This document shows, one piece after another, positions 1 to 47,915 of a stretch of 47,915 nt of DNA (position 1 is the first letter of the stretch; every line of letters starts with the position of its first letter). Below the pieces are notes generated by a model. That model was given only the letters and a program-made list of their open reading frames with translations, was not told the DNA's origin and did no database searches. Source of the DNA: Escherichia phage vB_EcoS-BECP10; the sequence record MW286156.1. One strand, written 5' to 3'. Position numbers and translations under genes: made by a program.

Positions 1-99
1 ACGAATAGCACTTTTTGCTAAAGACAAATGGGGATGGCAAGGCTATAGTAAACTCATCAACAACGAGGAGATAGATATGAAGGTAAAAATAACAGCACT
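1..99. repeat. Terminal direct repeat: bases 1-99 are identical to 47817-47915 (window wraps around a circular or terminally redundant genome)
   Basis: Exact match of the first 99 nt to the last 99 nt, read directly from the sequence. Confidence 0.9.
4..76 (+). promoter_or_regulatory. Early promoter module 1: TAGCA-N5-TGCTA element (6-20), -10-like TATAGT, leader CTCATCAACAACGAGGAG
   Basis: AATAGCACTTTTTGCTAAAG followed about 22 nt later by TATAGT and a box-2 variant, then RBS GAGGAG and ATG at 77. Confidence 0.6.
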
Positions 100-271
100 A
101 AGTAAAACGGATGGTTTTGACGATGAAGAATACGAATTCTACGGCCTTGAGCCTGGTGGTGTTTACAATGTAGTGGCTGTATACGAAGAGCTTGAGTCAA
201 TGGTGATAAAGAACAAGCATGATAGAAACGTAATGGTATACAACTTCGAGGTAGAGCGGTATGAAGATTGA
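77..271 (+). CDS. Hypothetical early protein (64 aa)
   Basis: ORF track; strong RBS GAGGAG 7 nt upstream; first gene after module 1. Confidence 0.5.
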   Translation: MKVKITALSKTDGFDDEEYEFYGLEPGGVYNVVAVYEELESMVIKNKHDRNVMVYNFEVERYED

Positions 272-440
272 TAAAGACGATTTGCGCCACGAATGCGCAC
301 TGATTGGACTTAACGAAGTTTACACCAACCTTGTGCTGCGCGGAAAGCTGGACATTGATTTGGCTAAGCAATTCCAGTCAGAAGATGAATTTCTGTGCTG
401 CGATGGACTTGGCTGCGTCGAATGTTTACCATTTATTTGA
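261..440 (+). CDS. Hypothetical small Cys-rich protein (59 aa, CCDGLGCVEC)
   Basis: Hand-translated ORF overlapping stop of previous gene (ATG at 261); below the 60-aa track cutoff. Confidence 0.3.
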   Translation: MKIDKDDLRHECALIGLNEVYTNLVLRGKLDIDLAKQFQSEDEFLCCDGLGCVECLPFI

Positions 441-450
441 GGATTGAGAT

Positions 451-690
451 ATGAAAATTCGCTGCACAAACGTTATTAACAGTACAGACAAAAAGGTTTT
501 GACGCCATTTGTAAAAGGCTCTGTATACGAAGCTGAGCTGCTAATCATTAACTGCAAGACAATCCCGAACGAGTGGGTGATTAATGGCGCCGAGCGACCG
601 CACAAGCACGATTCTGGATGGATTGCTATCGCAGGTTGGAAGGTCGGAATGTTTATCCCTGGTGTCGCAACTTTTGATGAGGTGAGGTAA
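451..690 (+). CDS. Hypothetical early protein (79 aa)
   Basis: ORF track; RBS GAGGATTGAG upstream. Confidence 0.5.
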   Translation: MKIRCTNVINSTDKKVLTPFVKGSVYEAELLIINCKTIPNEWVINGAERPHKHDSGWIAIAGWKVGMFIPGVATFDEVR

Positions 691-843
691 ATGCTTAAAC
701 CATCTGATTTGAACTATTACGATCTAGAAACTATAGCAAAGTACAGCGGTAAGGGTTGGCCTGTTGGTGACTACTTCAAAGAAGATTTGATTGAGAGCTT
801 CAACATCGTCCAGAAGGCAATTGCAAAAGCAGCAAAGAAATAG
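691..843 (+). CDS. Hypothetical small protein (50 aa)
   Basis: Hand-translated; RBS GAGGTGAGG; ATG abuts previous stop; TAG stop lies inside the next IR element. Confidence 0.35.
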   Translation: MLKPSDLNYYDLETIAKYSGKGWPVGDYFKEDLIESFNIVQKAIAKAAKK

Positions 844-917
844 CACGAATTGCTAAAGCCCTTCGTGGCTTTTATTGTATATTCATCTCATCGAAACGAA
901 ACTAAGGAATCACGAAG
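839..917 (+). promoter_or_regulatory. Early promoter module 2: IR 841-855, hairpin AAGCCCTTCGTGGCTT, TGTATATT, CATCGAAACGAAA
   Basis: TAGCACGAATTGCTA, then 22 nt containing a GC hairpin, TATATT, conserved leader, RBS AAGGA. Confidence 0.65.
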
Positions 918-1220
918 ATGATTAACATGAACCTGTTTACAGCCGAAGACCATAACAACATGAATGAATTAGCTAACCTTTTCGAGACTGCTGGCATGGC
1001 AGAGATGTTCATGACTGAAAATGAGTTCAAGGATGGCATTAGCAACGCTATCGAAACAAATTTCGGTGATGCTCGCGTGACTGGTTCAATGTTCGCAAAC
1101 ATCGCTCGTAAATTCTTCCAGACGTACCGCGATTCACGCCACGCAAAGGGCACTTTTGGTGCCGCTAAAAGCGTAGGCGAAACAATCCGCGACTATATCG
1201 AACGTCATAACGCTAACTAA
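918..1220 (+). CDS. Hypothetical early protein (100 aa)
   Basis: ORF track; directly downstream of module 2. Confidence 0.5.
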   Translation: MINMNLFTAEDHNNMNELANLFETAGMAEMFMTENEFKDGISNAIETNFGDARVTGSMFANIARKFFQTYRDSRHAKGTFGAAKSVGETIRDYIERHNAN

Positions 1221-1245
1221 TAACAAACCAAAAAGGAAAATAGTA

Positions 1246-1599
1246 ATGGCTACCACTATCACTAAAAACTGGATCAGCTCAGATAACAATCTGTTTAAAG
1301 CTCGCGTTAAAGATGGTATTGAGCAAATCAAGATTCATGGTAAATGGCAAAATCTCACTGGCCGGGGTCGTTACGTCAAGACCAAGACTTTGCTTTGCAC
1401 TTTCGTGAACCACAAGTCACCACTCAAGAAGAGTTTCAGTAAGGGTAAGCGTTACCAGGTATCAATGACTGCATCACTTGGTCGTAACGCTGGGTATATT
1501 TATGATGAAGACGGCGAGGGCTGGCAGTTGACGCGTGATGAAGAAGTTGGCTTTGATGTGGGTTATGGGATGTATAAGTTTGAGGCGGCTTACAAATGA
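1246..1599 (+). CDS. Early protein, paralog family member 1 (117 aa)
   Basis: ORF track; RBS AAAGGAAAA; about 60 percent identical to 2415..2768 by eye (shared KTKTLLCT, GKRYQ, LGRNAGYIYD, GWQLTRD, GMYKFEA). Confidence 0.6.
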   Translation: MATTITKNWISSDNNLFKARVKDGIEQIKIHGKWQNLTGRGRYVKTKTLLCTFVNHKSPLKKSFSKGKRYQVSMTASLGRNAGYIYDEDGEGWQLTRDEEVGFDVGYGMYKFEAAYK

Positions 1600-1805
1600 T
1601 TGTTTCAGGTTATTCCATCGCTGTTTATTGCGACTGTAAGAAGTGCTCAACTGAGTCAAATTATGATGGTTCTTATTTTATGCCACACTATACGGACGCT
1701 GCGGGCGAGAACTTTTCTGATTGTGCAAGGCAACTTAAAGATGCTGGGTGGGTTTTGCATAAGAAGGATGGAAAATGCTATGCGCCAGGGCACTTAAAAA
1801 AATAG
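1596..1805 (+). CDS. Hypothetical Cys-rich small protein (69 aa)
   Basis: ORF track; ATGA overlap with previous gene; CDCKKC and other Cys residues. Confidence 0.45.
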   Translation: MIVSGYSIAVYCDCKKCSTESNYDGSYFMPHYTDAAGENFSDCARQLKDAGWVLHKKDGKCYAPGHLKK

Positions 1806-1883
1806 CACTTTTTGCTAATGACACTACCCGCTTCGGCGGGTATATTTGTTTCCATCAAGAAGACAAGCACTAAGGTGAACAAA
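1801..1883 (+). promoter_or_regulatory. Early promoter module 3: IR 1803-1817, hairpin CCCGCTTCGGCGGG, TATATT
   Basis: AATAGCACTTTTTGCTAATG, GC hairpin, TATATTTG, RBS TAAGGTG. Confidence 0.55.
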
Positions 1884-2000
1884 ATGAAAAACATCTCTAA
1901 AGCAGTTGATGCGGTAATGGAACAAGTAATTAAGTTTGGTTTCTTTGGCTTCATGGGCGCAATCGCTGTTGTAGTTGGCAAATGTCTGGTTGGTCTTTAA
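1884..2000 (+). CDS. Small hydrophobic protein (38 aa, predicted membrane helix)
   Basis: Internal ATG of track ORF 1812..2000 with RBS; FGFFGFMGAIAVVVG hydrophobic segment. Confidence 0.3.
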   Translation: MKNISKAVDAVMEQVIKFGFFGFMGAIAVVVGKCLVGL

Positions 2001-2080
2001 TGGCACTTTTTGCTAAAGACCTTAACAACAAAAATTGATATATTCTCTTCATCGAAACAAAACAACGAAAGGCAAAGAAA
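1999..2080 (+). promoter_or_regulatory. Early promoter module 4: variant IR TGGCAC-N5-TGCTA (2001-2015), TGATATATT, CTTCATCGAAAC
   Basis: TGGCACTTTTTGCTAAAG then extended -10-like TGATATATT and leader box. Confidence 0.55.
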
Positions 2081-2254
2081 ATGATTATTTTGACTCTGAT
2101 GGTTATCGCAGTATTCTTCCCTACGGTTGCCCTGATGGTTGTTGAAGTGATTGATGCTCGCGACACTAAAAAAACTTACGAAGCAATCAATGCTAACCGC
2201 CGCCCTTCCAAGTTCGAAGGTGCTAAATTCTCTACCAACTACAAGGCTCACTAA
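2081..2254 (+). CDS. Small membrane protein (57 aa)
   Basis: Hand-translated; RBS AAAGGCAAAG; N-terminal hydrophobic helix MIILTLMVIAVFFPTVALMVV. Confidence 0.35.
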   Translation: MIILTLMVIAVFFPTVALMVVEVIDARDTKKTYEAINANRRPSKFEGAKFSTNYKAH

Positions 2255-2418
2255 TGTTTGACAACTTTCATGACGCAATTGAGGAGGCTGCATTCAGGGC
2301 ATCACTTGATCGGAAGATTTACGGTTTAGTTCAGAAGGTTGATAAGATTGTGGTGCGTATCGTGCGCAAATCAGTACCAAACAAATTCATGTGGACAACG
2401 AAGAGATTAACAAAATGA
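2254..2418 (+). CDS. Hypothetical small protein (54 aa)
   Basis: Hand-translated; TAATG overlap upstream and ATGA overlap with next gene. Confidence 0.3.
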   Translation: MFDNFHDAIEEAAFRASLDRKIYGLVQKVDKIVVRIVRKSVPNKFMWTTKRLTK

Positions 2419-2768
2419 CTACTACACTGACTAAAAACTTCATTAGCAACAATAATGTACTCTACAAAGCTCGCGTTAAAGATGGTTTAGAGCAGATCAA
2501 GAAAAATGGAAAATGGATTAACCTTGAAGAGCGCGGCAAATACATTAAGACAAAGACACTACTTTGCACCAAGGTTGACCACAGCAATCCACTTAAGAAA
2601 TCATTCACTGAAGGTAAGCGTTATCAGATATCTATGCACGCTGGATTAGGTCGTAATGCTGGCTATATCTACGACAATGAAGGTGACGGCTGGCAGCTCA
2701 CTCGCGATGATGAAGTTGGCTATGATGTAGGCTTTGGGATGTATAAGTTTGAGGCCCAATACAAATGA
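2415..2768 (+). CDS. Early protein, paralog family member 2 (117 aa)
   Basis: Internal start of track ORF 2391..2768 matching the N-terminus of 1246..1599 (MTTTLTKNF vs MATTITKNW). Confidence 0.6.
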   Translation: MTTTLTKNFISNNNVLYKARVKDGLEQIKKNGKWINLEERGKYIKTKTLLCTKVDHSNPLKKSFTEGKRYQISMHAGLGRNAGYIYDNEGDGWQLTRDDEVGYDVGFGMYKFEAQYK

Positions 2769-2959
2769 ATGAGAATGTAAGAATCTACATAACAAGAGAT
2801 GCGATTTATTGCAAGTCTCTACAGTACGGAACTAAGTACAGATACTGCAAAGATAGAGGCCGCTTCTGTGTTATTGATTACATAAACCTTGATGGATTGC
2901 TTGAAACTTTTCTAGATACATTCCCAAGCGATAAGCTTTGGAACGGAGTTCCTTTTTAG
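2765..2959 (+). CDS. Hypothetical small protein (64 aa)
   Basis: ORF track; ATGA overlap with previous gene. Confidence 0.45.
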   Translation: MNENVRIYITRDAIYCKSLQYGTKYRYCKDRGRFCVIDYINLDGLLETFLDTFPSDKLWNGVPF

Positions 2960-14549: not shown

Positions 14550-17267
14550 ATGGCAATTTATGACGCTGGAACTGCATCGCTTGCAGCTGACGGAACTGTA
14601 ACTGGTGTTGGCACCACGTGGAGGCAACCACTAACGCTAATCCGAGTTGGCGCAACAATGATTTTTAACACCACCCCGACAAGCATTGTTACTATCGCTG
14701 AGATTTTAAGCGATACAGAGATTCGTGTATTCAATGATAAAGGTTTTACTGCGCCAGCTGGGACTCAGTACTCAATCCTTGCTCATGACGGAATTACTGT
14801 CCAAGGTCTTGCTCAGGACGTTGCTGAGACACTTCGTTATTATCAGTCCCGTGAAACAGAGGTTGCAGCGGCAGTTGATGCTTTTAATCAATTTGATTCT
14901 GATTCTTTCCAGCAAAGCGTAAATAATGTCAACATGCAATCTCAGCAAGTTGCTGTTGATGCTGCTCAAGTTTCTTCTGACAAAGATCAGGTATCTTCTG
15001 ATAGGCAGTTAGCTGAAAGTAGCGCTAACTCGGCTTCCTCTTCAGCTACAATAGCAAGCTCTGCTGCGGCTTCTGTGTCATCTGCTCTTGTAGTTGATTT
15101 CTCAAATGGTGGAGAAATAAACTCAAGAACTCAGCCTGCAATTTACTTTAATGACAATCATGTTTCGGTTTATTACTGGTCTGGTAGCGTTCCAAAATCC
15201 ATACCACAAAACTCATCACCACAGTCTACAGGTGGTATTGGAGTTGGTTTTTGGATTCAACAGGATTACACAAGAAGGTTTGAATCAGTATCAGCAATGA
15301 CAAACTCTGCCAGAATTTATGACTTAGAGGTTGTCTATTGTGATTCTTACATTGGTGGTCTTGGTTATGGTGGTGGGTTCTTTGTTTGTAAGCCGGAGTC
15401 ATCGTTATCATATGGATTATCTTCAGGATTGGTTTTTGAATCAAGTACCGGTTATTACTGGGAAAGAATCTGTAGCGGGGAGCTGTCGCCTTGCGAACTT
15501 GGAGCTATTAAGTCATCGACATCAGACTCAACGACACAGATACAGCAAATCCTAGACTCTGGGCTGGCATTAAAGCTTGATAGCGACTACATGGCATCAA
15601 ACCTGGTAATGAGAAATAAATCTTGCTCTATAATTGGTTTTGGCAAGCACAAATCAAGAATAACTCAGCTTAGTTCATCAATTGGCTCTTTAATTGAGGT
15701 ATCTGATTCTTGCTCGCTCATTCATATTGAAGGCATTGCTCTTTACGGCACTGGAGCCCAGCAAGACACGGCGTTTACTGATGGTACTGCTGGGATTTAC
15801 ATCCCTACGCCGACTGGGTTATCAACCAATTACCCATTCAACGCTGGTGCTGACCCTAGAAGGGACTTAACGATAAGAAACACTCACATTGCTGGGTTTG
15901 ATGTTTACGGAATTTTCGTTGCTGCTGGTAACTACTCTCCTGTTCTTGATGATGTTCTTATTCAGCACATAAAAAAAGACGGATTGATTAACGAAACAAC
16001 AGACTTCACATGGAATAACATACAGGTAAACACCTGTGGAAGAAATTGTCTAATACTTAGGAATGCCGGAAACTGTAGGATTGTTGGCGGTAAGTTTATT
16101 TGGTCGGGTTGGTCGGCTTATAATGAGCTTGATGATGCTTATGGCATCCTGATTGATAACTGCCAAAACATCACCATGTCAGCTATAGAGGCGCAGGATT
16201 GCGGTGGTGACGGTGTTAGAATTGTAAACTCTAGAAATGTGGTATTTAATGGATTAAATAGTAACAGGAACAGCATAAACTCAAACTACAGAGATTATAA
16301 CGTTTCGTTTTCAAATAGCTCTGTAAGAATCTATGGTTTTGTTGGGCTTAACTATGTATCTAACAATGGCGATGGAAGGCCAACTTCCGCTGGAAACTTC
16401 AGATTCCTTGACTCAAGATCTGATGTTGTGATCGACGGGGTTGTTGAATCTGGTTACTTTGGCCCAAATTTCTCAGGGGACACTAACTATGTTGCTGAGT
16501 ATTCAGGAAACCTGAAGATAAACGGACTGATAGATAAAAGGAAGACAAGAATTAAGCCAGCAAACGACACTTCAGCTTTTGATGGGGTCTCTAATACACC
16601 AGTATTCGCCGCAGCGGCATCATCAGTTGGGCAGCAATATTGGCTAAGGCTTTCACAGGCAAATAAAGATAAGATTATATGCACTGGATTTGACCCGTCA
16701 CTAGGTTTCACCGCTACATGCAATATATCGCCGACCATAACTGTTGCTGAAGACTTTAACCTTATGGCTATAGGGACTGGTTTTGGAGTTAATAGTAATG
16801 CTCTTTACTTGCAGTATAACGTGATGGCATCAGGAGAACACAGTGTCTCATTATTAATATCAGCATCAGGTGAAACAAGAGTTTTATCAGGTGTGTTGCC
16901 AGTCTCATCAAGAATGGTCAACGGTGGTACTTACAATATTGCTCTTGGTTTTGATGTATCTGGTAAGGTTTGGTGGAGCATCTTAAACCTGAATACTGGA
17001 TTTAGAGTTAGAAGGTCATTTGATTCTCAGTATATAGATATTGATGTCAGACCTATACTAACAACAGCTGGTAACTATGTAACCATGTATTCAGGTCAAG
17101 GCGCTGGTGATGTAGCTTGCTCTGGATATGGCTTTGGTGTTTACGTTGGCGGCTATTCAGATGAGTCTGATTATTGCGCTTCAAGATACTATTCGCTTAA
17201 AGGTGGTGTTGATTTGACAAAACAATCAGTATTTTTGAGTTTGAATGGTGATGTAACGTCACAATAA
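14550..17267 (+). CDS. Tail fibre / tailspike-like protein (905 aa)
   Basis: Large Ser/Gly/Asn-rich ORF with tail-fibre-like N-terminus; RBS AGGAGAAATAAC; bounded by terminators. Confidence 0.5.
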   Translation: MAIYDAGTASLAADGTVTGVGTTWRQPLTLIRVGATMIFNTTPTSIVTIAEILSDTEIRVFNDKGFTAPAGTQYSILAHDGITVQGLAQDVAETLRYYQSRETEVAAAVDAFNQFDSDSFQQSVNNVNMQSQQVAVDAAQVSSDKDQVSSDRQLAESSANSASSSATIASSAAASVSSALVVDFSNGGEINSRTQPAIYFNDNHVSVYYWSGSVPKSIPQNSSPQSTGGIGVGFWIQQDYTRRFESVSAMTNSARIYDLEVVYCDSYIGGLGYGGGFFVCKPESSLSYGLSSGLVFESSTGYYWERICSGELSPCELGAIKSSTSDSTTQIQQILDSGLALKLDSDYMASNLVMRNKSCSIIGFGKHKSRITQLSSSIGSLIEVSDSCSLIHIEGIALYGTGAQQDTAFTDGTAGIYIPTPTGLSTNYPFNAGADPRRDLTIRNTHIAGFDVYGIFVAAGNYSPVLDDVLIQHIKKDGLINETTDFTWNNIQVNTCGRNCLILRNAGNCRIVGGKFIWSGWSAYNELDDAYGILIDNCQNITMSAIEAQDCGGDGVRIVNSRNVVFNGLNSNRNSINSNYRDYNVSFSNSSVRIYGFVGLNYVSNNGDGRPTSAGNFRFLDSRSDVVIDGVVESGYFGPNFSGDTNYVAEYSGNLKINGLIDKRKTRIKPANDTSAFDGVSNTPVFAAAASSVGQQYWLRLSQANKDKIICTGFDPSLGFTATCNISPTITVAEDFNLMAIGTGFGVNSNALYLQYNVMASGEHSVSLLISASGETRVLSGVLPVSSRMVNGGTYNIALGFDVSGKVWWSILNLNTGFRVRRSFDSQYIDIDVRPILTTAGNYVTMYSGQGAGDVACSGYGFGVYVGGYSDESDYCASRYYSLKGGVDLTKQSVFLSLNGDVTSQ

Positions 17268-17292
17268 AAAAGCCCCGAAAGGGGCTTTATCT
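17268..17292. terminator. Bidirectional terminator AAAAAGCCCCGAAAGGGGCTT (copy 1)
   Basis: Perfect hairpin AGCCCC-GAAA-GGGGCT flanked by A-run and T-run between convergent genes; identical to the hairpin at 22304-22319. Confidence 0.7.
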
Positions 17293-17298
17293 TTTGCA

Positions 17299-20512: not shown

Positions 20513-20648
20513 CTCTCGTTTTTGGGGTTGAATTATTTTCACTCCCGTATTTTGTGGTGCATTTTTTTGCATCAAAAGCAGCACCACTGCTGCCGGTGAG
20601 TGCACTATAACCAATCAGGAAGCATCAGTTTTGATTATTCGTGCTATT
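20513..20648 (-). promoter_or_regulatory. Promoter module 15 (minus): half-degenerate IR 20632-20646 upstream of the Rha-like gene
   Basis: Minus-strand AAATAGCACGAATAATCAAAAC; leader box poorly conserved. Confidence 0.4.
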
Positions 20649-20649
20649 T

Positions 20650-21003
20650 GTATATCTGTGTAAAACTCACCTAAATACGGTTCGCTACCTTCTAAACCGC
20701 ACCAGCACTGGCTGTAACTCTTGTAACCAATGTATCCACCACAATTGCACCCTATCTATATCTATATGCATCCCCTCCTTAACAGGAAGTCAAACATAGT
20801 ATTTTAGAAAAACACACCAACATAACCATAGAGAGTAGTTACAATATATACAAACAAATATAGTAATAATAATAATTACTCTAAACCCTTATTATATAAG
20901 GATTCTATAGTGTAACTAATGCGTATCTTCGCGTAAAAAGCGTATACAATTTTCCGCGTATGAGATTGTATACATCGAGTTACATCGGTTACGCGTATAT
21001 CAA
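20650..21003. promoter_or_regulatory. AT-rich ORF-free control region A at the minus/plus divergence point; partly homologous to region B
   Basis: No ORF of 60 aa or more; shares TAATAATAATAAT, TTATATAAGGAT, TAGTGTA, GCGTATA.AATT, ACATCGG, ACGCGTATAT blocks with 47490-47640. Confidence 0.5.
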
Positions 21004-21088
21004 ATAGCACGATTTGCTAAAGACTCCAGCAGAAGCCTTTGCTATAGTTACTCCATCGAAACGAAACATACTTACTAAGGAATACAAA
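21004..21088 (+). promoter_or_regulatory. Promoter module 8: IR 21006-21020, TGCTATAGT, CATCGAAACGAAA
   Basis: AAATAGCACGATTTGCTAAAG, about 23-nt spacer, extended -10-like TGCTATAGT, leader, RBS AAGGA. Confidence 0.65.
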
Positions 21089-21334: not shown

Positions 21335-22296
21335 TGCCTCAAGGTATCTTGATAGATTTGAATGACGGAAGGCCAGCAATGGAAATCACAGCTGGCTTGA
21401 GAGTTCCAGCCGTGACTGGTTCAATAAACACTAGCGGGTTAAGCTCACCAGCATCATCATGGGATTTCGGTCTGACTATGACTCCTGGCTCAACAGCATT
21501 CTGCCTGCCAACTCAGGCTGTTTATGTTGATGCATATGATGTTATACCAGAAGTTTATTACATGAATGGGTTCTCGAAGGTTAATGATGGGGTTGGAAGG
21601 ATTACATTAAGTAACTTTAACGGCGCTAATGGTCGCATATTGCAGTTTGGCGGTCAGTGCTTTGAGATTTTACCAGCATCATCACAATCAAGCCCCGGTG
21701 TCCTTGTTGAGAACTCGACTGACTTTACAGCGATATCAAGCAATTCCAGATTAATGACTGCTGCTTGGGTTGGTGGCATCCAGGTTAATGGATCTGCATC
21801 ATTGCCAGTTGGCGGCATTCCTTTTGGTAAATGGGATAACCCAAACGTATCCCTTGAAAGTGATGGTAGTACGATATGGTGTAGGGATATAACATACAAT
21901 GGGATTGATGATGTTGCTGCAAGTACTTACGTTCAGTTAGTTATTTTCAATAATACACCTCCAGTAGCTGGTCCGGGTTTAACGATATCAAACAGCGCTG
22001 GGCAGATAGTTTTCTCTAGTGTCAGGAGGCCATTTGTTCTAAGTGGATTTATGCAGATTAATAATGGTTACCAGTCGGTGAATGGTGGGTTCTTCCCAAT
22101 ACTTAGATGCGGAGCGACAACTAGAGTCACTGGTGGATATAATAACTTACGATACAAGGGTGTTTGCATGTCTGGAGGTTCAGTTAGAGCCGTCCCAGGC
22201 ACTGTTATAGGTAACTATTCAACTCAAACTGGCGCGCAATTCCCATTTGATACAAACATATCAATGGCACTTCCATTTATTCCCAACTTCTACTAA
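21334..22296 (+). CDS. Putative tail fibre or receptor-binding protein (320 aa)
   Basis: Internal Met of track ORF with RBS AAGGAG; Gly/Ser/Asn/Thr-rich; ends at the shared bidirectional terminator opposite J. Confidence 0.35.
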   Translation: MPQGILIDLNDGRPAMEITAGLRVPAVTGSINTSGLSSPASSWDFGLTMTPGSTAFCLPTQAVYVDAYDVIPEVYYMNGFSKVNDGVGRITLSNFNGANGRILQFGGQCFEILPASSQSSPGVLVENSTDFTAISSNSRLMTAAWVGGIQVNGSASLPVGGIPFGKWDNPNVSLESDGSTIWCRDITYNGIDDVAASTYVQLVIFNNTPPVAGPGLTISNSAGQIVFSSVRRPFVLSGFMQINNGYQSVNGGFFPILRCGATTRVTGGYNNLRYKGVCMSGGSVRAVPGTVIGNYSTQTGAQFPFDTNISMALPFIPNFY

Positions 22297-22298
22297 AA

Positions 22299-22322
22299 GA
22301 AAAAGCCCCGAAAGGGGCTTAA
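22299..22322. terminator. Bidirectional terminator AAAAAGCCCCGAAAGGGGCTT (copy 2)
   Basis: Same perfect hairpin as at 17271-17286, between convergent genes. Confidence 0.7.
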
Positions 22323-22326
22323 TCAT

Positions 22327-25300
22327 TTACCATACTCCAACCACTACCCTACCTCCATTTGGTAAATTAACAGTTATGCCGTTATTGTTTATTACGACAG
22401 TATTGTTGGTTCCGTTAAACGCGAAGTTACCATTGTTAGCGTACAAACTACCGCGAACGGTAGCGTTACTTAACTCAGCAAAACCAGATTTATCAATTGC
22501 CCAACCAGCACTACCAGCAACATAGTTGTTTGATTGAATCCTGTTACCAATCTTCGCGTTAGTAATTGAACCATCCTGAATCACCGCGCTCTGAATGAAC
22601 ACCTGGTTATTCTCCACAACGAAAGGCAGTGACCACTGACCGGATCCAGAACTAATACCGTTGCTGATTGCGAACCTGTTAGCATCAAAAATAAACTGAC
22701 TACGAACATTTCCACCACTACCAGTTAACTCCATGCTCATTCCAGCGCCGTACTCAACTCCATTGTACTTCAGGCCAAGCTTAACGCCGTACTGAACACC
22801 AACCCCTTCAACCGTAGCGTAAGAGTCAAGCTTCTGATTCAAAGCCGCCTCGTTATCACCAAGCCTTGCGCTTAATTGAGTATCAGCTGTAGCCCTGGCT
22901 TCGGTCTCCGTAGCAAGCGCGGTTTCAATTGTCGTAATCTGACCAACAATCTCATCATCAATCTGCGCTTTAAGCTGCGTGAGAGAGTCCACACGGGCCT
23001 GAGTTTCATCAGCAATCAAACTTACAGCCTGACGATATTCAGCCTTCCTTGCGCCATTCTCGCGCTTCATAACGCGAACGTCAGTATCGTTTGCCAGGGC
23101 GTTCTCTATAATTGCCTCAGCCTGATTCTGGATATCCGTGTTTGCATCAATGGCGTTCTGAAGTAGGTACTTGTAACCATCAGAGTTTTCGATATCAACC
23201 TTGATATCACCAATTATTGCACTTACGTCGTCAGATGCCATGCCCCTTACAAAATCAGTCCATGGCGATACGTTACCTATCCTGTCAATAATCCTCGCTC
23301 TGTACCACCTCACGTTACCTGCTGGTAAAGTGGTGTGCCAGTATTCGTACTGAGGATACGGAACCAGTGTAAGCAGCGATGCGCTCTCTGGATTGTATGT
23401 ACCGTCACCATTATCAGGAACCTGCTGAAGCTCAGTGTACGCAGTGTCAGCTGAATCAGTAGGAAAACCCCACTTAACCCTAATCCCGAAAACCTCATCA
23501 TCAGATGCGGTAATTACAGGCAGCGCCGAAGGTTCCCCAATCTTGCCGGTCAGGCTAACTGTCGTTATATCAGACCAGGCAGATACTGATTTCTGGTCAG
23601 TTACGGCACGAACCCTGACGTCGTAGATGCCAGCGTAAATTCCTTCAATATCAACCTCGGTGTTAGCCGTCTCTGGTACGTTAATCCAGTTACCATTGTT
23701 CTTACGCCATTGTACGTTGTATGTTTTCGCATACTGCACCTTGTCGTAACCAATAACCATCGTCTCAACGCTTAAACCCTGAACTACCTTGCTGTAACTA
23801 GTAACGGTGATATTTTCAGGTGGTAAAATCCTGTCAGGGTCAACGATACTTGTTGGCCTGTCGTCAATATTCACACCATAGTCAATCTCGTCATACTTGT
23901 TCGGGTCATACTGCACCGCAGTGATGCTGTACTGGAATGAATCCTCGCCGTCCGTGTTTGCTTTTTGAATTCCTGTCACAACGTATTGCTGCAACGCCAG
24001 ATTCTGCTTGTCGATTGCAAATACCGTATCCGGCTGAGGTGTGAAGCTGAATGCTGTATTCAGTTCAAGCGTCAACTTATCGGCAGATACTGAAGCGATA
24101 GTCCTGTACTCTGGGCTCCCATCTGGCTTGTTGATTAAAATCCTGTCGCCAGGGTCAGCATCAATAGCGAATGGCACGAACACCTGCAAACCTGTAGCTT
24201 CAACAATTCGACCCGAAAGGTTTAATGTGTAGTTGCTTGACCAAGCCTGGTCATTAACGGCAATTACATCACCAATCATCGGAATCATCCCCTCAAGGCC
24301 AGTTGTGAATGTTACCGTTTCACTTCGAAGGTTTGTTTTCAGCAACCAACGACCACGGCGGTTAGCCTCGCTTCGCCTTACGCAGCCAATTGCAGTCAAG
24401 TCTACAGGGTTGTAACCAAATCGGCGTGTTGCTTCTAAGTCGAATACTGGCTCGACGTCCTGCTGGTAGTTGTTCTGCTCGTCATCAAACTGAACGTTGG
24501 CTGTCGTGTAAAGGCTCTTGTCGCTAGAGAATGTCCTGTTAAACAATCCATCAACAACGTTATCATTAGTGAACACATAGCTTGGCTGGCGCGGCCTGTC
24601 TACAACAATCCCGATTTGCTCACCATCATAGAAGGTTAAACCGCGGAAGATAGAACAGATGTCACGAATAAGCTGATACGCTTCCACTTTCTGCTGAATG
24701 ACAACGTTACAAGTATATCGCGGCTCCATTCCACCCTTACCATCAGGAACCATCTGGTCGCAGAATTGCGCTGCTTCATACAGACCCCATTTATCAATCT
24801 CAACACCAAGTTCTCGCTGATCTAAACCGTAACGCTGGCTAACCACCAGGTCATATAAAACCCAGGCCGGGTTGTCAGACCATGCCATTTTAAAGGTTCC
24901 ATTCCATGCTCCGCTATAAGTTCTTGTCTCTGGATTGTAGTTTGTCGGCACACGGATAAGCTTCCACTTTTTCTTAATGGCTATCGTTGGGATGCCATTA
25001 GGGAACAGGTCAGAACTGAACTCCACATAAACAAGTGCCGTAAGAGGGTAGCGGAACTTAGCGTCGATTACTTCCTGATAGGTTGTAATCTGCATTCCGT
25101 TAACTAGAGTGCTACTTGTTGAGTCTGGCGTTAACTTCCTAATACGAACAAGAGCGCTGCTAAACTCGGCTGGTAGGTTAACCCTGATGCTGCGGTCGTA
25201 ACCTGTTGTAGTTTTACCGTTAGCCACGCCTCTGGTATATTCCGTGTACGCTGCGCCATTAACTGATAAATCGATTGCATATTCACATGTTGTTCCATTT

Positions 25301-27871: not shown

Positions 27872-27897
27872 CAATAAAAAAGACCCCTTAGGGTCTT
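27872..27897 (-). terminator. Intrinsic terminator closing the moron cassette
   Basis: Minus-strand hairpin AAGACCC-TAAG-GGGTCTT followed by TTTTTTATT. Confidence 0.6.
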
Positions 27898-33422: not shown

Positions 33423-33840
33423 TGGACTTTTTCCTTATAGCGTCATTAAAGTAAAAACCAAGCCTCTTAGTGACGATACCAAGTACCCCGTTTGGTGCCT
33501 GACCAGAATAACCGAACTCCAATGGTAACGCATACGTTAGCGCATTGGTGATATAGATTGTATGCGTAGCCTTATCTCTAGCTAGAGCGTGGATTTGCCT
33601 TCTTAGTGACTTAATTGTATCAGCCCCATCCTTGTCATAGTTGTTCAAACCAATCAGTGATGGCCTGTTTCCTGTAGCTTGCCAGTTACCTCTAAACCTT
33701 CCAGTATCAACAGGAGACAACTTAACGATATCCCTAGCTGCGTTATCAAGGGCATCATCAATAATCTCAGGAATCGCCTCCATTACTGAATCGGCCCAAT
33801 CATTAATCTTTAGCTTAAATAGCAGGTTATCATTAGCCAT
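33412..33840 (-). CDS. Putative tail completion / neck protein
   Basis: Synteny. Confidence 0.35.
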   Translation of the reverse strand: MANDNLLFKLKINDWADSVMEAIPEIIDDALDNAARDIVKLSPVDTGRFRGNWQATGNRPSLIGLNNYDKDGADTIKSLRRQIHALARDKATHTIYITNALTYALPLEFGYSGQAPNGVLGIVTKRLGFYFNDAIRKKSNAL

Positions 33841-36858: not shown

Positions 36859-36912
36859 TTCATTTACTCCATATCGGTTAATAGTCTTAATGATTGTAAC
36901 AGAATTTTGGCA

Positions 36913-36936
36913 ATAAAAAACCCGCCGAAGCGGGTT
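36913..36936 (-). terminator. Intrinsic terminator
   Basis: Minus-strand hairpin CCCGC-TTCG-GCGGG followed by TTTTTTATTG. Confidence 0.65.
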
Positions 36937-40608: not shown

Positions 40609-42180
40609 TTACTTAACGCCAGCTAGCCTCATTAAGCGGGCTCTCGGATCGTCACTCAAGTTCAATTCACAGTTGATGGCCATTGTTGTCGTATCCACAA
40701 TGTCATCATGGGGATGAGAATCGTCAGCAGTGAACGCCGAGAACTCGGTTAATAGCGAGGTAAGCCATGGCGCAGAGTCAGGCAGAACTACGTTACCAGC
40801 TTTAATCTGTGGCAGTGCGCTCATCACCCTGGTTAACTTATCTGTATCTGGAACGAAAGGCTCGATAGGAGTTCGCATTACCCGACCCGCCGACTGGATA
40901 AGTCCTATTCCAGACGCTTTCTTCTCGATAATAACCTTGCGCAATATACCATCTGTCTTACTAGCTGCTCTATGCTTACTCTCAAAGTCCAGAAGAGTTT
41001 GCTCAAGTTCAGGTGCTTCCCATTTACCCCTTACCATATCCAGAAGATAAAGCCTGTTATCTTTGCGCCCCCATAGCTGGAATACTGAGTAGTCGCTATA
41101 ACTCTTAGTAGTCATGGCAGTATCAGCCGTAATGAAACGGTAGTCATACTTGACTGGCGGCCTGTTATTCTCATCGAGGCGAGCAAACCAATCTACGTTG
41201 ATCAGGTTTCCACCCAGAGCTACTGGAGATTGTTGGTACTGGCTTAGGAATGTGTACGGATCTGAGTCCCACATTGCCATCAAGTCATGCACAGATTCCT
41301 TCTGCGGGAAGTAGCTGTAATACTTAACACCATCTCGCTCGACGTACTCGGATGAAAGCACGTCCTTCTCGAACTGCTCACGAATCCAGTCAGGGAGTTC
41401 ATTCACATATTCTTCAGTGACCAGCGCCGGTATCTTCACTACATCAAAGTCGATACCCATACCACCAGAAGTCATGAACCACGTTGAATCCTGAGTATGA
41501 AGCCTTTGCTGAATTGACAGAATTGGCGTAGCTTTACCTTTAACGCTACTCGCCCTACGTGAGCGAATGGTGTTTTTGAGAAGAGTGTGCACGGCCTCTC
41601 GCCTGACTTTGCTGAACATATCATCCGCTTTGTCTACATCATCAAGCATCAAACAGCCGCTATAGTTATCTGTAATATATCCACCGCGAGCGCCTGTAAT
41701 CTGACCGCCAATTGCTTTTGATATTGATTCAAACTTAACCTTACCAGAATCATCAAGAACCTGAATCTCATCATCCTTACATGTGCCAAACTTGCAGGGC
41801 CACAACTCCTGGAATTCTGTCGATTTGATAAGGTCACGAACCCGTTTAGAGTTACGCTTCACGAGGCTATCTGAGAATGACAGGCTAAGATTGCGAACCT
41901 TCTTTAGTTTAAGCATTGAGTATACTGGGAAGTGAATGGATGTAATCTCGGTTTTTCCGGCCCCGGGAGCTACGTTAATGATTGTATCTCTGCGTTGACC
42001 GCTAATAACCTCATCGATGATTCTACAGAGGTACTTATGGTGCCAGTTAGGAATATAACGCTCAGATTGACTTATTTGAAACCACACCCTTAAGAAACCC
42101 TCGAAGCTATGAGTTGATAGTGCCTTTATAGCTAGCTTTTCTGGGTATGTTAAGTCTTCCCATACAATTATTTCACTCAT
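40609..42180 (-). CDS. Terminase large subunit
   Basis: Walker A-like INVAPGAGKTE, ATPase and nuclease-like regions; start taken at MSEIIVWE. Confidence 0.8.
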   Translation of the reverse strand: MSEIIVWEDLTYPEKLAIKALSTHSFEGFLRVWFQISQSERYIPNWHHKYLCRIIDEVISGQRRDTIINVAPGAGKTEITSIHFPVYSMLKLKKVRNLSLSFSDSLVKRNSKRVRDLIKSTEFQELWPCKFGTCKDDEIQVLDDSGKVKFESISKAIGGQITGARGGYITDNYSGCLMLDDVDKADDMFSKVRREAVHTLLKNTIRSRRASSVKGKATPILSIQQRLHTQDSTWFMTSGGMGIDFDVVKIPALVTEEYVNELPDWIREQFEKDVLSSEYVERDGVKYYSYFPQKESVHDLMAMWDSDPYTFLSQYQQSPVALGGNLINVDWFARLDENNRPPVKYDYRFITADTAMTTKSYSDYSVFQLWGRKDNRLYLLDMVRGKWEAPELEQTLLDFESKHRAASKTDGILRKVIIEKKASGIGLIQSAGRVMRTPIEPFVPDTDKLTRVMSALPQIKAGNVVLPDSAPWLTSLLTEFSAFTADDSHPHDDIVDTTTMAINCELNLSDDPRARLMRLAGVK

Positions 42181-42688
42181 GATTGCAGAACTCCCCATGT
42201 ATACTCTCCCTCATTGATGCCGCCACCTTTGCTGCTTCTTCTTTTTTCTTAAACCAACCTCCAAACATCATTTTTCCATTTATTTTCACATATGCAATAT
42301 ACTCATTCCTTCTCTTTGAGTAGCTAACACCTTTGTAGCCAGATTTATTATTGCTCATCATAGACTTATTCATTCCGTTTTGGCTAAGCGATGCATCCCT
42401 AAGATTAGAAATCCTATCGTCTGATGGGTCACGATTTATGTGGTCAACCGCGCCAACTGGCTCAAAGCCATAATACAAATAAAATGCAATCCTTGAGCTC
42501 TTGTATATCTTCCCTTGTATCTGTACTTGATATCGACCGCTAGCTTTGTGCAAAGTCCCAGCCTCGGATCCGATTATGGTTTTGCTACTTACTTTTGATG
42601 TCCACGTTAGCTTTCCCGTTTCAGGATTGTAACTCAGAATTCCTCTAAGAAAATCCAGAGGCGGCATAGGCTTCGCTCTATCTAACAT
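42173..42688 (-). CDS. HNH endonuclease with AP2 DNA-binding domain (homing-endonuclease-like)
   Basis: HNH motif VDHINRDPSDDRISNLR and AP2-like GYKGVSYSKRRNEYIAYVKINGK; between the terminase subunit genes. Confidence 0.7.
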   Translation of the reverse strand: MLDRAKPMPPLDFLRGILSYNPETGKLTWTSKVSSKTIIGSEAGTLHKASGRYQVQIQGKIYKSSRIAFYLYYGFEPVGAVDHINRDPSDDRISNLRDASLSQNGMNKSMMSNNKSGYKGVSYSKRRNEYIAYVKINGKMMFGGWFKKKEEAAKVAASMRESIHGEFCNHE

Positions 42689-42733
42689 AAAAAACCCCAC
42701 TCGTTTATTGAATGGGGTAATTATATCAACATA

Positions 42734-43249
42734 TCAAAGTTTATCAACTATTGATTCAAGCGCAGCCTTCATAGCTTCCTCATCGTTCACTACTGCATTG
42801 GAAGCATTGTTGATGTTAACCTCTTGCGGCTTATCGATGCCTAAGTCCTTGCCAATCAGTCCAGGGTTGACGATGTTGTTAACGCCAAGCTGATACTTCT
42901 GCTCAAAGATTACCGAATCCACAAACTCCATCACCTCATCAAATCCAGGCGAAGAGCGCCATTTACTGATGGCATTATGACCAACGCCGCAGAAAAGTTG
43001 GAATCCAGTTATCGTAAATATTCGTGGCTTATGAACAAGGTTTTCCGTTACAACACCCTGAAAGCTCGCCGTTTCAATGGCCTTAATCGCTTGCTCTTCA
43101 GCCCAGCTGAAATACCTTACAGCCATGTCGAATACCTGCTCGGGAGTGTATCTGTGGTTAATCTTAAGATTGGCAATGTCGCCATACTTCTTATTGTAAA
43201 GCTCCTTGAAGTTACCAATCTTCTGGTGAATTTTTTTCTCTTCTGACAT
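42734..43249 (-). CDS. Putative terminase small subunit (171 aa)
   Basis: Position immediately upstream of HNH and large terminase; RBS AGGAGGAATATC. Confidence 0.45.
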   Translation of the reverse strand: MSEEKKIHQKIGNFKELYNKKYGDIANLKINHRYTPEQVFDMAVRYFSWAEEQAIKAIETASFQGVVTENLVHKPRIFTITGFQLFCGVGHNAISKWRSSPGFDEVMEFVDSVIFEQKYQLGVNNIVNPGLIGKDLGIDKPQEVNINNASNAVVNDEEAMKAALESIVDKL

Positions 43250-43550: not shown

Positions 43551-43626
43551 TGGTGTTCCGCACTGGACTCGAACCAGTAACTGAGACTTAGGAGGTCTCT
43601 GCGTTATCCTGTTACGCCAGCAGAAC
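43551..43626 (-). tRNA. tRNA-Arg (anticodon CCU, reads AGG), 76 nt with encoded CCA
   Basis: Manual cloverleaf: acceptor GTTCTGC/GCGGAAC, D-stem GCGT/ACGC with GG in loop, anticodon stem GAGAC/GTCTC with loop CTCCTAA, T-arm ACTGG-TTCGAGT-CCAGT, discriminator A, CCA. Confidence 0.8.
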
Positions 43627-46023: not shown

Positions 46024-46098
46024 GGTTATTTCCTCTTTGTTGTTGATAGGGTAATCATAGCTGACTACCCAATTTATTGTTTAGCAATTTGTGCTATA
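46024..46098 (-). promoter_or_regulatory. Promoter module 18 (minus): IR 46082-46096, hairpin over TATGAT, leader CCCTATCAACAACAAAGAGG
   Basis: Minus-strand AATATAGCACAAATTGCTAAAC then GGGTA...TACCC hairpin and box-2 variant. Confidence 0.6.
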
Positions 46099-46641
46099 TT
46101 CACCATTCAGGAGAGCTTTCGCTTTCCGGTAGAACTGTATGGCCTTCTCCACCTCATCGGCATCATAGCCATGGATTGTTGTTTGCGGTGGCACGTAGTT
46201 TGAGCGTGGCGCGTCGGATCGGCACTGACTGCACCAGTTTTGCACGTCGTCCTTATCCATCTCAACCAGGGCCGGATGAACATAAATCTTATCGCCAATG
46301 AGGCAAACAATTCCCGCCTCCTGTAGTTCTGGGATGATGTTATTTGTCAGGTCATGCATAATCCCTTCGCGCCCGACGAATGGCTGGACCTTTCGGATTG
46401 CCTCGTATAGAGATCGAATGCCAACCACTCCATTCCAGCCCTGGCGTCTAATCCTGCTCACTACGACGCCGTATTTGTAGCTCAACTTGACGCACAGCAT
46501 CTCTTCGGCGCTGGGCCAGAAATTGAATGATTGGCGGTATCCATTAGTATTGATTGCCACACGAAGTGGCGGCAGGTTATCTTGCCTGGCGACTTCCATC
46601 ACCTGGTCATCAGTTAACTTATCTTCGTCGAAATCAAACAT
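46081..46641 (-). CDS. Short paralog (186 aa) of the N- and C-terminal regions of the 527-aa ATPase, lacking the ATPase core
   Basis: MFDFDEDKLTDDQVMEVARQDNLPPLRVAINTNGYRQS and GVVGIRSLYEAIRKVQPF...CLIGDKIYVHPAL align with both ends of 3920..5503. Confidence 0.55.
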   Translation of the reverse strand: MFDFDEDKLTDDQVMEVARQDNLPPLRVAINTNGYRQSFNFWPSAEEMLCVKLSYKYGVVVSRIRRQGWNGVVGIRSLYEAIRKVQPFVGREGIMHDLTNNIIPELQEAGIVCLIGDKIYVHPALVEMDKDDVQNWCSQCRSDAPRSNYVPPQTTIHGYDADEVEKAIQFYRKAKALLNGEYSTNC

Positions 46642-47183
46642 TAGTTAAACTCCTTGATCATCTCTTGATACATGCGGATAGCCTTAACTGCGCCAGTCAG
46701 CTCATCACCTTCAAAATCCAGTACGTTAGGTGATAACTTAAGCAAGCGAGATTTGAACTTCTCAATAACAGCCCGCTCCTTTTCTTCTTTCTCTCTTTGT
46801 TTTGCTTTTGGCTCCTTAACCCCCTCGGTGAGATGGATTAGCAGGTATTTATCAGCACCATCGCCATCATACTGGCGGGGCGTGGTATCTTCACCATCCG
46901 CATCAATCCAGATGAATTGATAACGGGCGATATACTTAGCCTCACGCAACTCTCTCATTCGTGACAATGTATTATGAATGTATGAGTTCTTTAACTCACT
47001 CAACTTCCGCTCTCCAAGGTTGATAATATCCCCGGTTTTATCATCAGTCTCCATTTCCGGGTAATCATGACCTCTAATTTGTCGGTAAATATCTCGAACT
47101 GGAACCTTGAACTCCTTATCTTCTGACTGGAGTGCCTTTTTAGCCATGAATCGAATTACTTCACCTAAGGTCGTTTTGCTCAT
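46641..47183 (-). CDS. Hypothetical early protein (180 aa)
   Basis: ORF track; RBS GAGAGGAA; first gene of the minus-strand early arm. Confidence 0.5.
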   Translation of the reverse strand: MSKTTLGEVIRFMAKKALQSEDKEFKVPVRDIYRQIRGHDYPEMETDDKTGDIINLGERKLSELKNSYIHNTLSRMRELREAKYIARYQFIWIDADGEDTTPRQYDGDGADKYLLIHLTEGVKEPKAKQREKEEKERAVIEKFKSRLLKLSPNVLDFEGDELTGAVKAIRMYQEMIKEFN

Positions 47184-47250
47184 GATGATTCCTCTCGTTG
47201 ATTGTTGTTTGTTGCCTCGTTTCGATGAAATGACTATAGCAAAGATTTAC
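47184..47250 (-). promoter_or_regulatory. Promoter module 19 (minus): TGCTATAGT plus leader TTTCATCGAAACGAGG but no upstream IR
   Basis: Extended -10-like TGCTATAGT and conserved leader; the AATAGCAC...GCTAAAG element is absent. Confidence 0.5.
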
Positions 47251-47816
47251 GTGTCTATAAATGTATTTTTTTGTTTATTTTAAAATTGATACGCTTTTTT
47301 CCCTGCATGCCGCATCGTTGCTGGGTGTGTACAGGCGTCTACGTGCGTCTACATATAGATGAGGGGGTTCTGGCTATATCCCCTTATATTTTCCTACAAG
47401 GTAGTACAATTCCTACAGTGTAGGAATAAAAATAGAAATTTAAGCAAACCAACCTATATAGTAGCGTACAGATGATACGCTATATATACATAATACTATA
47501 TATAATAATAATAATAGTCTAAGTACTTTATATATAAGGATATTTTAGTGTATATGGATTGTATCAAGGCGTATAAATTGTAAATGTGGATACGGTCGAC
47601 AATCGGTAGACATCGGACTACGCGTATATAAAAGAAGTCTCTCCGCGAGCGATAAAACCAACCAACTATTTGATCCAAACCTCCTTTCATTCAATCCATC
47701 CATCCATCATTGCCAAACTGGCAACAATCAATAAACCTGTTGCACTCGATGAAATATTGCTTTATGTGTAATAGTCATGCTAATCATCGCAATGCCTGCA
47801 ACAATCCATAAATCTG
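47251..47816. promoter_or_regulatory. ORF-free control region B between the two divergent early arms; palindromes, short tandem repeats, candidate origin or pac region
   Basis: Palindrome TTCCTACAGTGTAGGAA, direct GTCTAC repeats, (CCAT)4, DnaA-box-like TGTGGATAC, AT-rich block homologous to region A. Confidence 0.45.
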
Positions 47817-47915
47817 ACGAATAGCACTTTTTGCTAAAGACAAATGGGGATGGCAAGGCTATAGTAAACTCATCAACAACGAGGAGATAGATATGAAGGT
47901 AAAAATAACAGCACT
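47817..47915. repeat. Second copy of the terminal direct repeat (duplicates IR module 1 and the first codons of the 77..271 gene)
   Basis: Identical to 1-99. Confidence 0.9.

Follow-up and report, generated by a model that had tools for sequence, protein, structure and literature searches.

T1 belongs to the seven classical T phages, yet no replication origin has ever been located for it. Here we analysed the 47,915 nucleotides (nt) of the T1-like Escherichia phage vB_EcoS-BECP10 (sequence record MW286156.1; this whole stretch is called the window), in which two intergenic regions, region A near 20.9 kb and region B at the genome end, carry copies of one AT-rich module that may serve as paired replication origins. 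Such paired arrangements have been described elsewhere. In SPP1, a virulent pac-type siphovirus (oriL and oriR), and in the satellite P4 (ori and crr), two distant regions contain the same initiator-binding repeats beside AT-rich DNA. P4 also has Cnr, a small winged-helix protein that acts as a modulator of the origin-binding domain in the helicase-primase alpha and that is reminiscent of a mini-helicase encoded in the window. The initiators of SPP1 and P4 belong to other families (G38P and the SF3 primase-helicase alpha, respectively) and have no sequence relationship to the T1-like system. In the origins of T7 and T4, promoters stand next to an AT-rich unwinding element, and transcription likely assists the opening; these origins lie downstream of a defined phage promoter and are without iterons, whereas no established promoter reads into the core described here. 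In the T1 family itself, the pac region and a 21-nt direct repeat were reportedly described by Roberts in 2004 and by Wietzorrek in 2006, and both the pac location and the repeat are already known. Region B is homologous to the non-coding stretch where the records of T1 and TLS open and to which pac is assigned.

The closest described system is the Rep-ori kind of SaPI, in which a self-loading helicase reads 5-6-nt iterons (6-12 of them) through its C-terminal winged helix, the domain that gives it origin specificity, and the iterons flank a central AT-rich region (PMC9371898). In SaPI and SCCmec elements (with the MCM-like SaPIbov1 Rep and Cch) the iterons point in opposite directions and a separate gene encodes the primase (PMC9371898). 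The T1-like phage is similar in having an AT core, a predicted MCM-like helicase with a winged helix and a Zn-ribbon primase (13548-14471), and it has short repeats beside the core, on both sides in region B and with exact copies on one side in region A; unlike in SaPIs, the candidate origins are not adjacent to the helicase gene. No origin and no iterons were found in the genome papers of TLS (PMC11447400) and SU57 (PMC7718038), and a literature search for transcriptomes or origin mapping in T1-like phages found none. Those two papers do not speak of paired modules, of their being the stability minima, of lineage-specific repeats, of DUF3987 as an MCM-like protein or of its motor-less paralogue, any of which may have been mentioned earlier in the T1 or Rtp genome papers.

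A duplicated AT-rich module with the lowest duplex stability of the genome

BLAST of regions A and B against GenBank phages placed the window phage among the T1-like phages (Drexlerviridae, Rogunavirus). The best relatives at region B were JK06, AHP42 and UDF157lw, with 96-99% identity over the region, UDF157lw being 99.2% identical to the window there. A locus search with the genes flanking A and B returned a handful of close relatives, because the neighbour genes of region B are too variable, and GenBank genomes were used instead.

A preliminary description of the window, made from the letters of the sequence, had proposed that A and B are two homologous control regions, unless their similarity was no greater than expected for AT-rich DNA. 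Local alignment of region A (20784-21005) with region B (47422-47634) gave a score of 70, far above the level of shuffled sequences (about 22-24). Dinucleotide shuffles scored 23.7 +/- 3.0 (maximum 36), and shuffles inside 15-nt blocks, which kept the local AT-richness, scored 22.3 +/- 3.8 (n = 1000, maximum 47). As a control, six other AT-rich segments of the same genome scored 15-23, while the 75-nt AT core by itself reached 63 versus 20.5 +/- 4.4. These results showed that the similarity of A and B is beyond an effect of AT-richness, and the homology was confirmed and found to be family-wide in Drexlerviridae. The two copies are as follows:

47422-47634, plus strand: region B copy of the module, candidate oriB, with an AT core at about 47478-47555 and then phased GYGTAT hexamers
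20784-21005, plus strand: region A copy of the module, candidate oriA, with an AT core at about 20839-20915 and then phased GCGTAW hexamers

In region B the module consists of the blocks TATACA, ATATATATAA(TAA)n, CTAAG, TATATAAGGAT and TGTA. When the A and B cores of the window, e4/1c, V12397, T1 and TLS were compared, all ten contained TATACA, ATATATATAA(TAA)n, CTAAG, TATATA(A/G)GAT and TGTA in the same order, and in these five lineages the ordered blocks were followed by 2-3 GCGTAW-like hexamers with a 10-11-bp period. Including Klebsiella phage KP36 (Webervirus), the module was doubled in six lineages (the window phage, e4/1c, V12397 of the Braunvirinae, T1, TLS and KP36), which represent five subfamily- or genus-level groups with protein identities of about 45-60% and a differing gene order around region A. 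That the module is kept at both loci with its blocks in order across such lineages implies selection. The position at a strand-switch point, to which the preliminary description had tied both regions, proved dispensable, since region A lies between co-oriented genes in TLS and between recE and the primase gene in KP36, and both phages keep the module there without a divergent gene pair.

The two copies of one genome were most alike in the core. Identity between the AT cores of A and B was:

window, e4/1c and V12397: 77-86%
T1: 61%

The KP36 copies have a common run of about 52 nt, identical as read by eye. The right halves of A and B were 43% identical to each other in the window genome, whereas orthologue compared with orthologue they were 79-95% identical. 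One explanation for this pattern is gene conversion, by which the copies would be kept alike in a recombinogenic phage (RecE/Erf), as recombination hotspots or with no dedicated function at all. The AT cores are indeed more alike than the flanks within one genome, and besides the long identical run of KP36 the two V12397 copies share the lineage-specific AGTAAAAGGTTGATATATATAGATATT. Conversion accounts for likeness, but not for persistence at both loci across lineages whose proteins are only about 50% identical and whose gene order differs, and we consider it very improbable as the whole explanation.

Duplex stability was determined by a nearest-neighbour scan of 60-bp and 100-bp segments in six complete genomes (window, UDF157lw, V12397, T1, TLS and KP36). 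The A and B cores were the two least stable segments of the genome in 6/6 genomes, at 60 and at 100 bp, with z of about 4.5-5.8. In the window the free energies (dG) of 60-bp segments were:

B core, start 47480: -54.5, the least stable of the genome
A core, start 20839: -57.9, the second least stable
next least stable segment: -61.7
genome mean: -79.2 (standard deviation 4.7)

By this calculation both cores are the predicted preferred sites of melting, as the central AT-rich region is in an origin of the SaPI Rep/ori type.

Lineage-specific repeats, the DUF3987 helicase and a proposed origin model

Around the cores, short repeats that differ from lineage to lineage were enriched. Copies within A and B, out of all copies in the genome, were:

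KP36, GTAAGAT: 13/19, 10 of them in A; left and right of the AT core, in either orientation
window, GCGTAT: 8/20; in B, minus-strand copies left of the core and plus-strand copies right of it
T1, TGTAACA: 6/6; in A on both sides of the core with mixed orientation, in B on one side
TLS, GTGAAC: 5/24; on both sides of the core with opposite orientation, in A and B

Region B of the window has exact GCGTAT copies at 47475(-), 47569(+) and 47622(+), a further one at 47289(-) just beyond the module, and looser GYGTAT copies at 47548 and 47559, while the phased GCGTAW hexamers of region A are found at 20921, 20931, 20940, 20956 and 20993. V12397 has GCGTAT/GCGTAA-type hexamers, similar to those of the window, right of its AT cores. 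A link between the origin-binding domain of P4 alpha and the TGTTCACC-like repeats of TLS was considered and set aside, no P4 structure being among the fold hits.

Two proteins of the phage are of interest as possible readers of these repeats:

3920-5503, plus strand: DUF3987 protein, predicted MCM-like AAA+ helicase, with a C-terminal winged helix at about residues 455-527
46081-46641, minus strand: "mini-helicase", an early protein of 186 aa, second gene left of region B; phrog_7327, annotated "HEPN" in UDF157lw

A sequence search of PDB chains with the DUF3987 helicase and with a Cro-like helix-turn-helix (HTH) protein (13022-13495) gave no matches, so fold prediction was needed. The AlphaFold model of the DUF3987 protein had a predicted local distance difference test score (pLDDT) of 89 and a predicted template modelling score (pTM) of 0.86, and in Foldseek it matched MCM helicases with E down to 5.8e-6. 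An initiator-type helicase with a C-terminal winged-helix domain, as in the SaPI Rep/ori type, is predicted. Identity to the window helicase was then compared between its two parts:

T1: motor 61%, C-terminal domain 44%
TLS: motor 78%, C-terminal domain 55%
KP36: motor 73%, C-terminal domain 34%
V12397, which has similar hexamers: motor 92%, C-terminal domain 92%

As judged from these alignments, the winged-helix domain diverges much faster than the motor. The HTH protein is strongly conserved, as is the 21-nt repeat, whose consensus is invariant in five lineages; a pairing of these two is plausible from their shared conservation, which would leave the variable repeats to be read by a protein that is itself variable. 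For such a self-loading initiator that reads the repeats, the candidate is the DUF3987 helicase.

We tentatively interpret A and B as two homologous origins of the SaPI Rep/ori kind, each with iterons and an unwinding element, and hold this interpretation with somewhat less than even confidence. It is favoured because the cores are the instability maxima, iteron-like repeats flank them, and a predicted MCM-like helicase with a fast-evolving winged helix is encoded. Each origin would consist of a 70-80-bp AT core, ATATATATAA(TAA)n...TATATAAGGAT, as the DNA easiest to melt, flanked by helically phased lineage-specific repeats (GCGTAT in the window). The DUF3987 helicase would bind the repeats through its C-terminal winged helix, melt the AT core and then load itself, after which the Zn-ribbon primase and host DNA polymerase III would take over, and divergent transcription from the flanking promoters might aid the opening. 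Both copies may fire, or one may be an enhancer like crr of P4. The preliminary description had left open whether the regions are origins, shared regulatory sites or recombination hotspots, and the evidence now favours the first over the other two. Paired modules of unwinding element and repeats, together with a helicase tail that co-varies with the repeats, provide a concrete origin hypothesis for the T1 family; if the modules are promoter regions only, the result is ordinary.

Several observations weigh against origins. AT-rich intergenic regions bearing promoters are common, and several promoter-like sites above the 99.9th percentile lie in both cores. The right halves of A and B are just 43% identical in the window genome, as given above. 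The repeat evidence is uneven, clear in KP36 and moderate in the window, where the exact GCGTAT copies of region A lie on the right side only, and in T1 regions A and B prefer partly different motifs. Four lineages underlie the proposed link of the repeats to the C-terminal domain of the helicase, and in V12397 the helicase lies within a block co-inherited with region B. The helicase gene is about 4 kb from the 47.5-kb module across the genome junction, with the other module at 20.9 kb, so the adjacency of the SaPI type is lacking. In addition, the B core is just 40-200 bp from the pac cut, and ATATA repeats of this region have been proposed as the pac of T1. It is also known from the older T1 literature that T1 concatemer formation depends on recombination, so that a defined origin could matter little.

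As the main rival reading, the module might be a transcription-control cassette, duplicated at the heads of the early arms. It would combine strong early promoters for the host RNA polymerase, including AT tracts of the UP type, with operators at which a phage regulator or a host nucleoid protein binds. In the window genome A and B both lie between divergent operons, and promoter-like sites were found inside the cores, at 47584(-) (TTTACA-15-TACAAT, score 9.9), 20937(-) (9.4) and 20885(-) (TTTAGA-17-TATATT, 9.2), the last with a homologue at 47521(-) (7.9). TATACA-N16-18-AATAAT is present in both A and B, the annotation of AHP42 has promoters in both cores, and the TLS authors put 2/3 canonical promoters in A and B. 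Against this, no promoter candidate keeps its place in the alignment across all lineages, none is outstanding genome-wide, and the two best of the overlapping candidates point towards each other. Scans with a sigma70 position weight matrix (PWM) and with consensus sequences were tried as arbiter and rejected; they gave many moderate hits and none at a lineage-conserved position, so they could not decide between promoter and origin. A cassette also leaves unexplained that region A of TLS and KP36 retains the module without divergent genes, that the two extreme instability maxima occur in 6/6 genomes, and that region A of KP36 holds 10+ repeat copies. We regard it as possible, with the chances well on the doubtful side.

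Two other functions were considered for the module, namely a small non-coding RNA, or for region B an oriC-type origin dependent on host DnaA. The preliminary description had pointed to a DnaA-box-like TGTGGATAC, and one such box, with 8/9 matches, is present on the plus strand at 47585-47593. It becomes TCTGGATAC in e4/1c and is missing in the Braunvirinae relatives; it was lost in e4/1c, V12397 and MSK, and none was found at the homologous place of region A. The box is probably fortuitous, and the DnaA idea fails because it is not conserved; with a single 8/9 box and no cluster in B, an oriC-like origin was rejected. As for an RNA, a short transcript across the GC-richer right half of the module could start from promoter-like sites, but a whole-genome Rfam search gave a single hit, a tRNA(-Arg), and no RNA family in A or B, no terminator was predicted in B, and the right halves are the poorly matching parts of the two copies. 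Both possibilities seem extremely improbable. The GC-skew check that had been suggested was also run. Cumulative GC and AT skew have their minimum at region B; the skew tracks gene orientation, and is therefore uninformative on origins.

The mini-helicase combines the N-terminal 48 aa of the DUF3987 helicase (67% identity) with its winged-helix domain (49% over 63 aa), the motor being absent (BLASTP), and PHROG searches gave cross-hits between the two proteins. Its AlphaFold2 model had a pLDDT of 84, and Foldseek gave weak winged-helix matches (E >= 0.07), which support the fold class and nothing more. It has 291 homologues and is common among Rogunavirinae and Braunvirinae; T1 and TLS lack it. 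The mini-helicase is a motor-less paralogue of the DUF3987 helicase and a candidate regulator or competitor at the same sites. A further step would be that the T1 family has two origins of iterons and unwinding element with an MCM-like self-loading helicase, and that in Rogunavirinae and Braunvirinae the mini-helicase, encoded beside oriB and pac, competes for repeats or partners and thereby sets the time of firing or brings about the switch to recombination-dependent concatemers and packaging. Such an extended scheme is speculative and, in our view, unlikely.

Region B as a mosaic of cis elements

Region B, the intergenic region at the genome end of this T1-like phage, is a mosaic of four cis elements, which we read as a leftward early promoter, the module of about 210 bp that recurs at A, a B-specific pac segment, and a right-arm promoter with the 21-nt repeat. 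The features outside the module, with the related promoters at region A, are:

47233-47261, minus strand: predicted leftward sigma70-type promoter without the 21-nt repeat; TTTATA, 17-nt spacer, TGcTATAGT
47335-47342 and 47345-47352: GCGTCTAC twice, 10-bp period; the exact repeat only in the window, AHP42 and UDF157lw
47391-47426: TTCCTACA twice as direct repeat plus inverted TGTAGGAA, with a 17-bp perfect palindrome at 47410-47426; region-B-specific
47635-47816: B-specific segment taken as pac region, 182 bp between the shared core and the repeat promoter; no counterpart in A
47820-47865, plus strand: predicted promoter with the 21-nt repeat AATAGCACTTTTTGCTAAAGAC, weak -35 AAGACA and -10 TATAGT at 47860-47865; for the right arm, start codon 47894
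21003-21048, plus strand: predicted promoter with the 21-nt repeat AATAGCACGATTTGCTAAAGAC, extended -10 TGcTATAGT at 21043-21048; for the cor-like lipoprotein gene, ATG 21090
20595-20650, minus strand: predicted degenerate repeat-type promoter, for the leftward Rha / exonuclease VIII / Erf / SSB operon

The last 99 bp of the window (47817-47915) are an exact copy of positions 1-99. This end duplication comes from overlapping ends in a circular assembly, the true genome being about 47,816 bp, and region B continues directly into the window start; the first right-arm gene is accordingly present twice, with its ATG at 47894 corresponding to window position 77. The preliminary description had called region B the largest non-coding stretch, which is correct, at a length of about 570 bp, which is too short, because the gap between the start codons is 710 bp (47184-47893). 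All the motifs that it listed are present, with coordinates off by a few bases and one wrong unit count, (CCAT)4 at 47687-47702 being in fact (CCAT)3 at 47696-47707. It contained neither the end identity with 1-99, nor the repeat-promoter blocks right of A and B, nor the B-specific segment with the pac region. In a comparison of six relatives, no open reading frame within region B retained its frame or extent, and the annotations of "hypothetical proteins" in this region of e4/1c and Rogue1 are probably spurious.

The GTCTAC direct repeats noted earlier are real and confined to the closest relatives. Other relatives have GCGTAC/CCGTATC pairs at the position of the GCGTCTAC repeats, and the pair at 47335-47352 may be a diverged left-hand iteron pair. 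The perfect palindrome TTCCTACAGTGTAGGAA was likewise found, at 47410-47426, preceded by TTCCTACAAGGTAG at 47391-47404. All three genome copies of TGTAGGAA lie within 47391-47426, and the trio of TTCCTACA half-sites is kept in six phages, with V12397 changing both arms together (TTCTGACAAGTGTCAGAA). The pattern suggests that 47391-47426 is likely a site for a dimeric protein or a hairpin, with an early repressor, the small terminase TerS or a hairpin as candidates.

We then examined the segment between the core and the repeat promoter. The first and last bases of the PhageTerm-ordered UDF157lw record, for which PhageTerm indicated headful packaging with a single preferred pac, map exactly to 47677|47678, and the first packaging cut is placed there from the result of this near-identical relative, not from the window phage's own reads. 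The PhageTerm start of the Rtp-like phage MSK (36,862) lies at the homologous spot, a few bases past GATGGATGG, which is the CCAT run on the other strand. T1 and TLS GenBank records were both opened inside the region-B homologue, in the B-specific segment; position 1 of the T1 record is 538 bp upstream of ST77, and that record has a terminal-redundancy feature at 1..2800. Since the mapped cuts fall inside 47635-47816, which has no counterpart in A, this segment was taken as the pac region. A passage of the SU57 paper places the pac of T1-like phages in an untranslated region homologous to B (PMC7718038). As in headful packaging of the P22 type, a unique preferred first cut and directional packaging were found through the UDF157lw and MSK records, and packaging would run leftwards in window coordinates. 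The corresponding small terminase is also encoded:

42734-43249, minus strand: terS, P22 gp3-type small terminase, with a PF16677 GP3_package match above cut-off

The segment is strongly conserved across subfamilies (CTTTCATTCA, CGCAACAATCAA, CATTGCA, AATATTGCT, AATCATTGCAAT..GCAACAAT.CATAAATC). In the window it contains CTTTCATTCA at 47684-47693, the (CCAT)3 run, and an array of GCAACAATC, CATTGC and AATATTGC at 47721-47729, 47753-47760 and 47798-47807; this GCAAYAWT/CATTGC array (47708-47807) is a candidate site for TerS.

A packaging role has also to be weighed for the AT core itself, which could be bound by TerS or bent as part of the packaging signal, with region A as a secondary or pseudo-pac. 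The distance from the first packaged end inwards to the B core is 40-200 bp, most genome copies of ATATATA fall in A and B (7/9 in the window, 18/20 in T1, 9/13 in TLS), and the ATATA repeats of this region were at one time put forward as the pac of T1, according to a citation in PMC8421802. On the other side, MSK is without the five-ATATA motif according to its authors (PMC8421802), PhageTerm gives one preferred pac in UDF157lw, and the B-specific segment has its own conserved repeat array with no counterpart at A. Because the UDF157lw and MSK cuts, like the T1 and TLS record starts, are all within the B-specific segment, a packaging role of the AT core is quite improbable, and the cores are still best read, tentatively, as origins. 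The distinction between the shared module and the B-specific pac segment is useful for engineering of T1-like phages, for transducing particles, and for consistent start points in the hundreds of Drexlerviridae records.

The leftward promoter had a PWM score of 10.0 (>99.99th percentile), is conserved in close relatives and has an A-rich tract upstream (47262-47290); TLS has its annotated promoter P01 at the equivalent place. From its position, it would drive 46641-47183(-) (DUF7174) and the left arm towards terS. On the right, the blocks 47820-47885 and 21003-21068 are 2 of about 20 genome-wide copies of a repeat-promoter family with the layout AAATAGCAC-nnn-TTGCTAAAG, about 17 nt, TATAGT and CATCGAAACGAAA. 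Positions 47820-47841 and 21003-21024 have no mismatch to the 21-nt search pattern and are 74 and 87 nt upstream of the ATG, respectively. The repeat has been described for TLS, T1, Rtp and Rogue1, and its function is listed as an open question (PMC11447400). It contains a palindrome TAGCA-N5-TGCTA centred at about -43, which suggests a site for a dimeric activator or repressor.

Genome-wide, the repeat AATAGCACnnnTTGCTAAAG with a weak -35, -10 TATAGT and a conserved CATCGAAACGAAA leader was found, for example, at 4, 839, 1801, 1999, 2962, 3506 and 21003 on the plus strand and at 7955, 10614, 13010, 28184 and 44975 on the minus strand, every copy being oriented with transcription. In V12397, three palindromic GACTACA/TGTAGTC sites at 33430-33530, followed by an extra small HTH-like gene and the Rha gene after region A, look like a separate operator set that is absent from the window.

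Gene map and other features

The order of the gene map is that of T1. Leftwards of region B follow small early genes, tRNA-Arg, terS, an HNH gene, terL, and the head and tail genes, and rightwards small genes and then the DUF3987 helicase; region A is bordered by the Rha / exonuclease VIII / Erf / SSB operon on the minus strand and by the cor-like lipoprotein gene on the plus strand. The transfer RNA (tRNA) gene at 43554-43626(-), between the early small genes and terS, scored 57.6 bits in Rfam and is annotated tRNA-Arg(CCT) in UDF157lw. Between terS and terL, 42173-42700(-) is a gene with HNH_3 and AP2-like domains that is not at that position in an Rtp-like relative and is probably a homing endonuclease.

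A direct repeat of 300 nt with 69% identity (1245-1544 and 2414-2713) marks the paralogous small early genes 1246-1599 and 2391-2768, both of which resemble T1 ST7 and TLS gp73. Near-identical GC-stem terminators, AAAAAGCCCCGAAAGGGGCTT, were found at 17262-17295, 22295-22328, 27872-27897 and 36911-36936, and two of the four stand at convergent gene junctions, where they are probably bidirectional.

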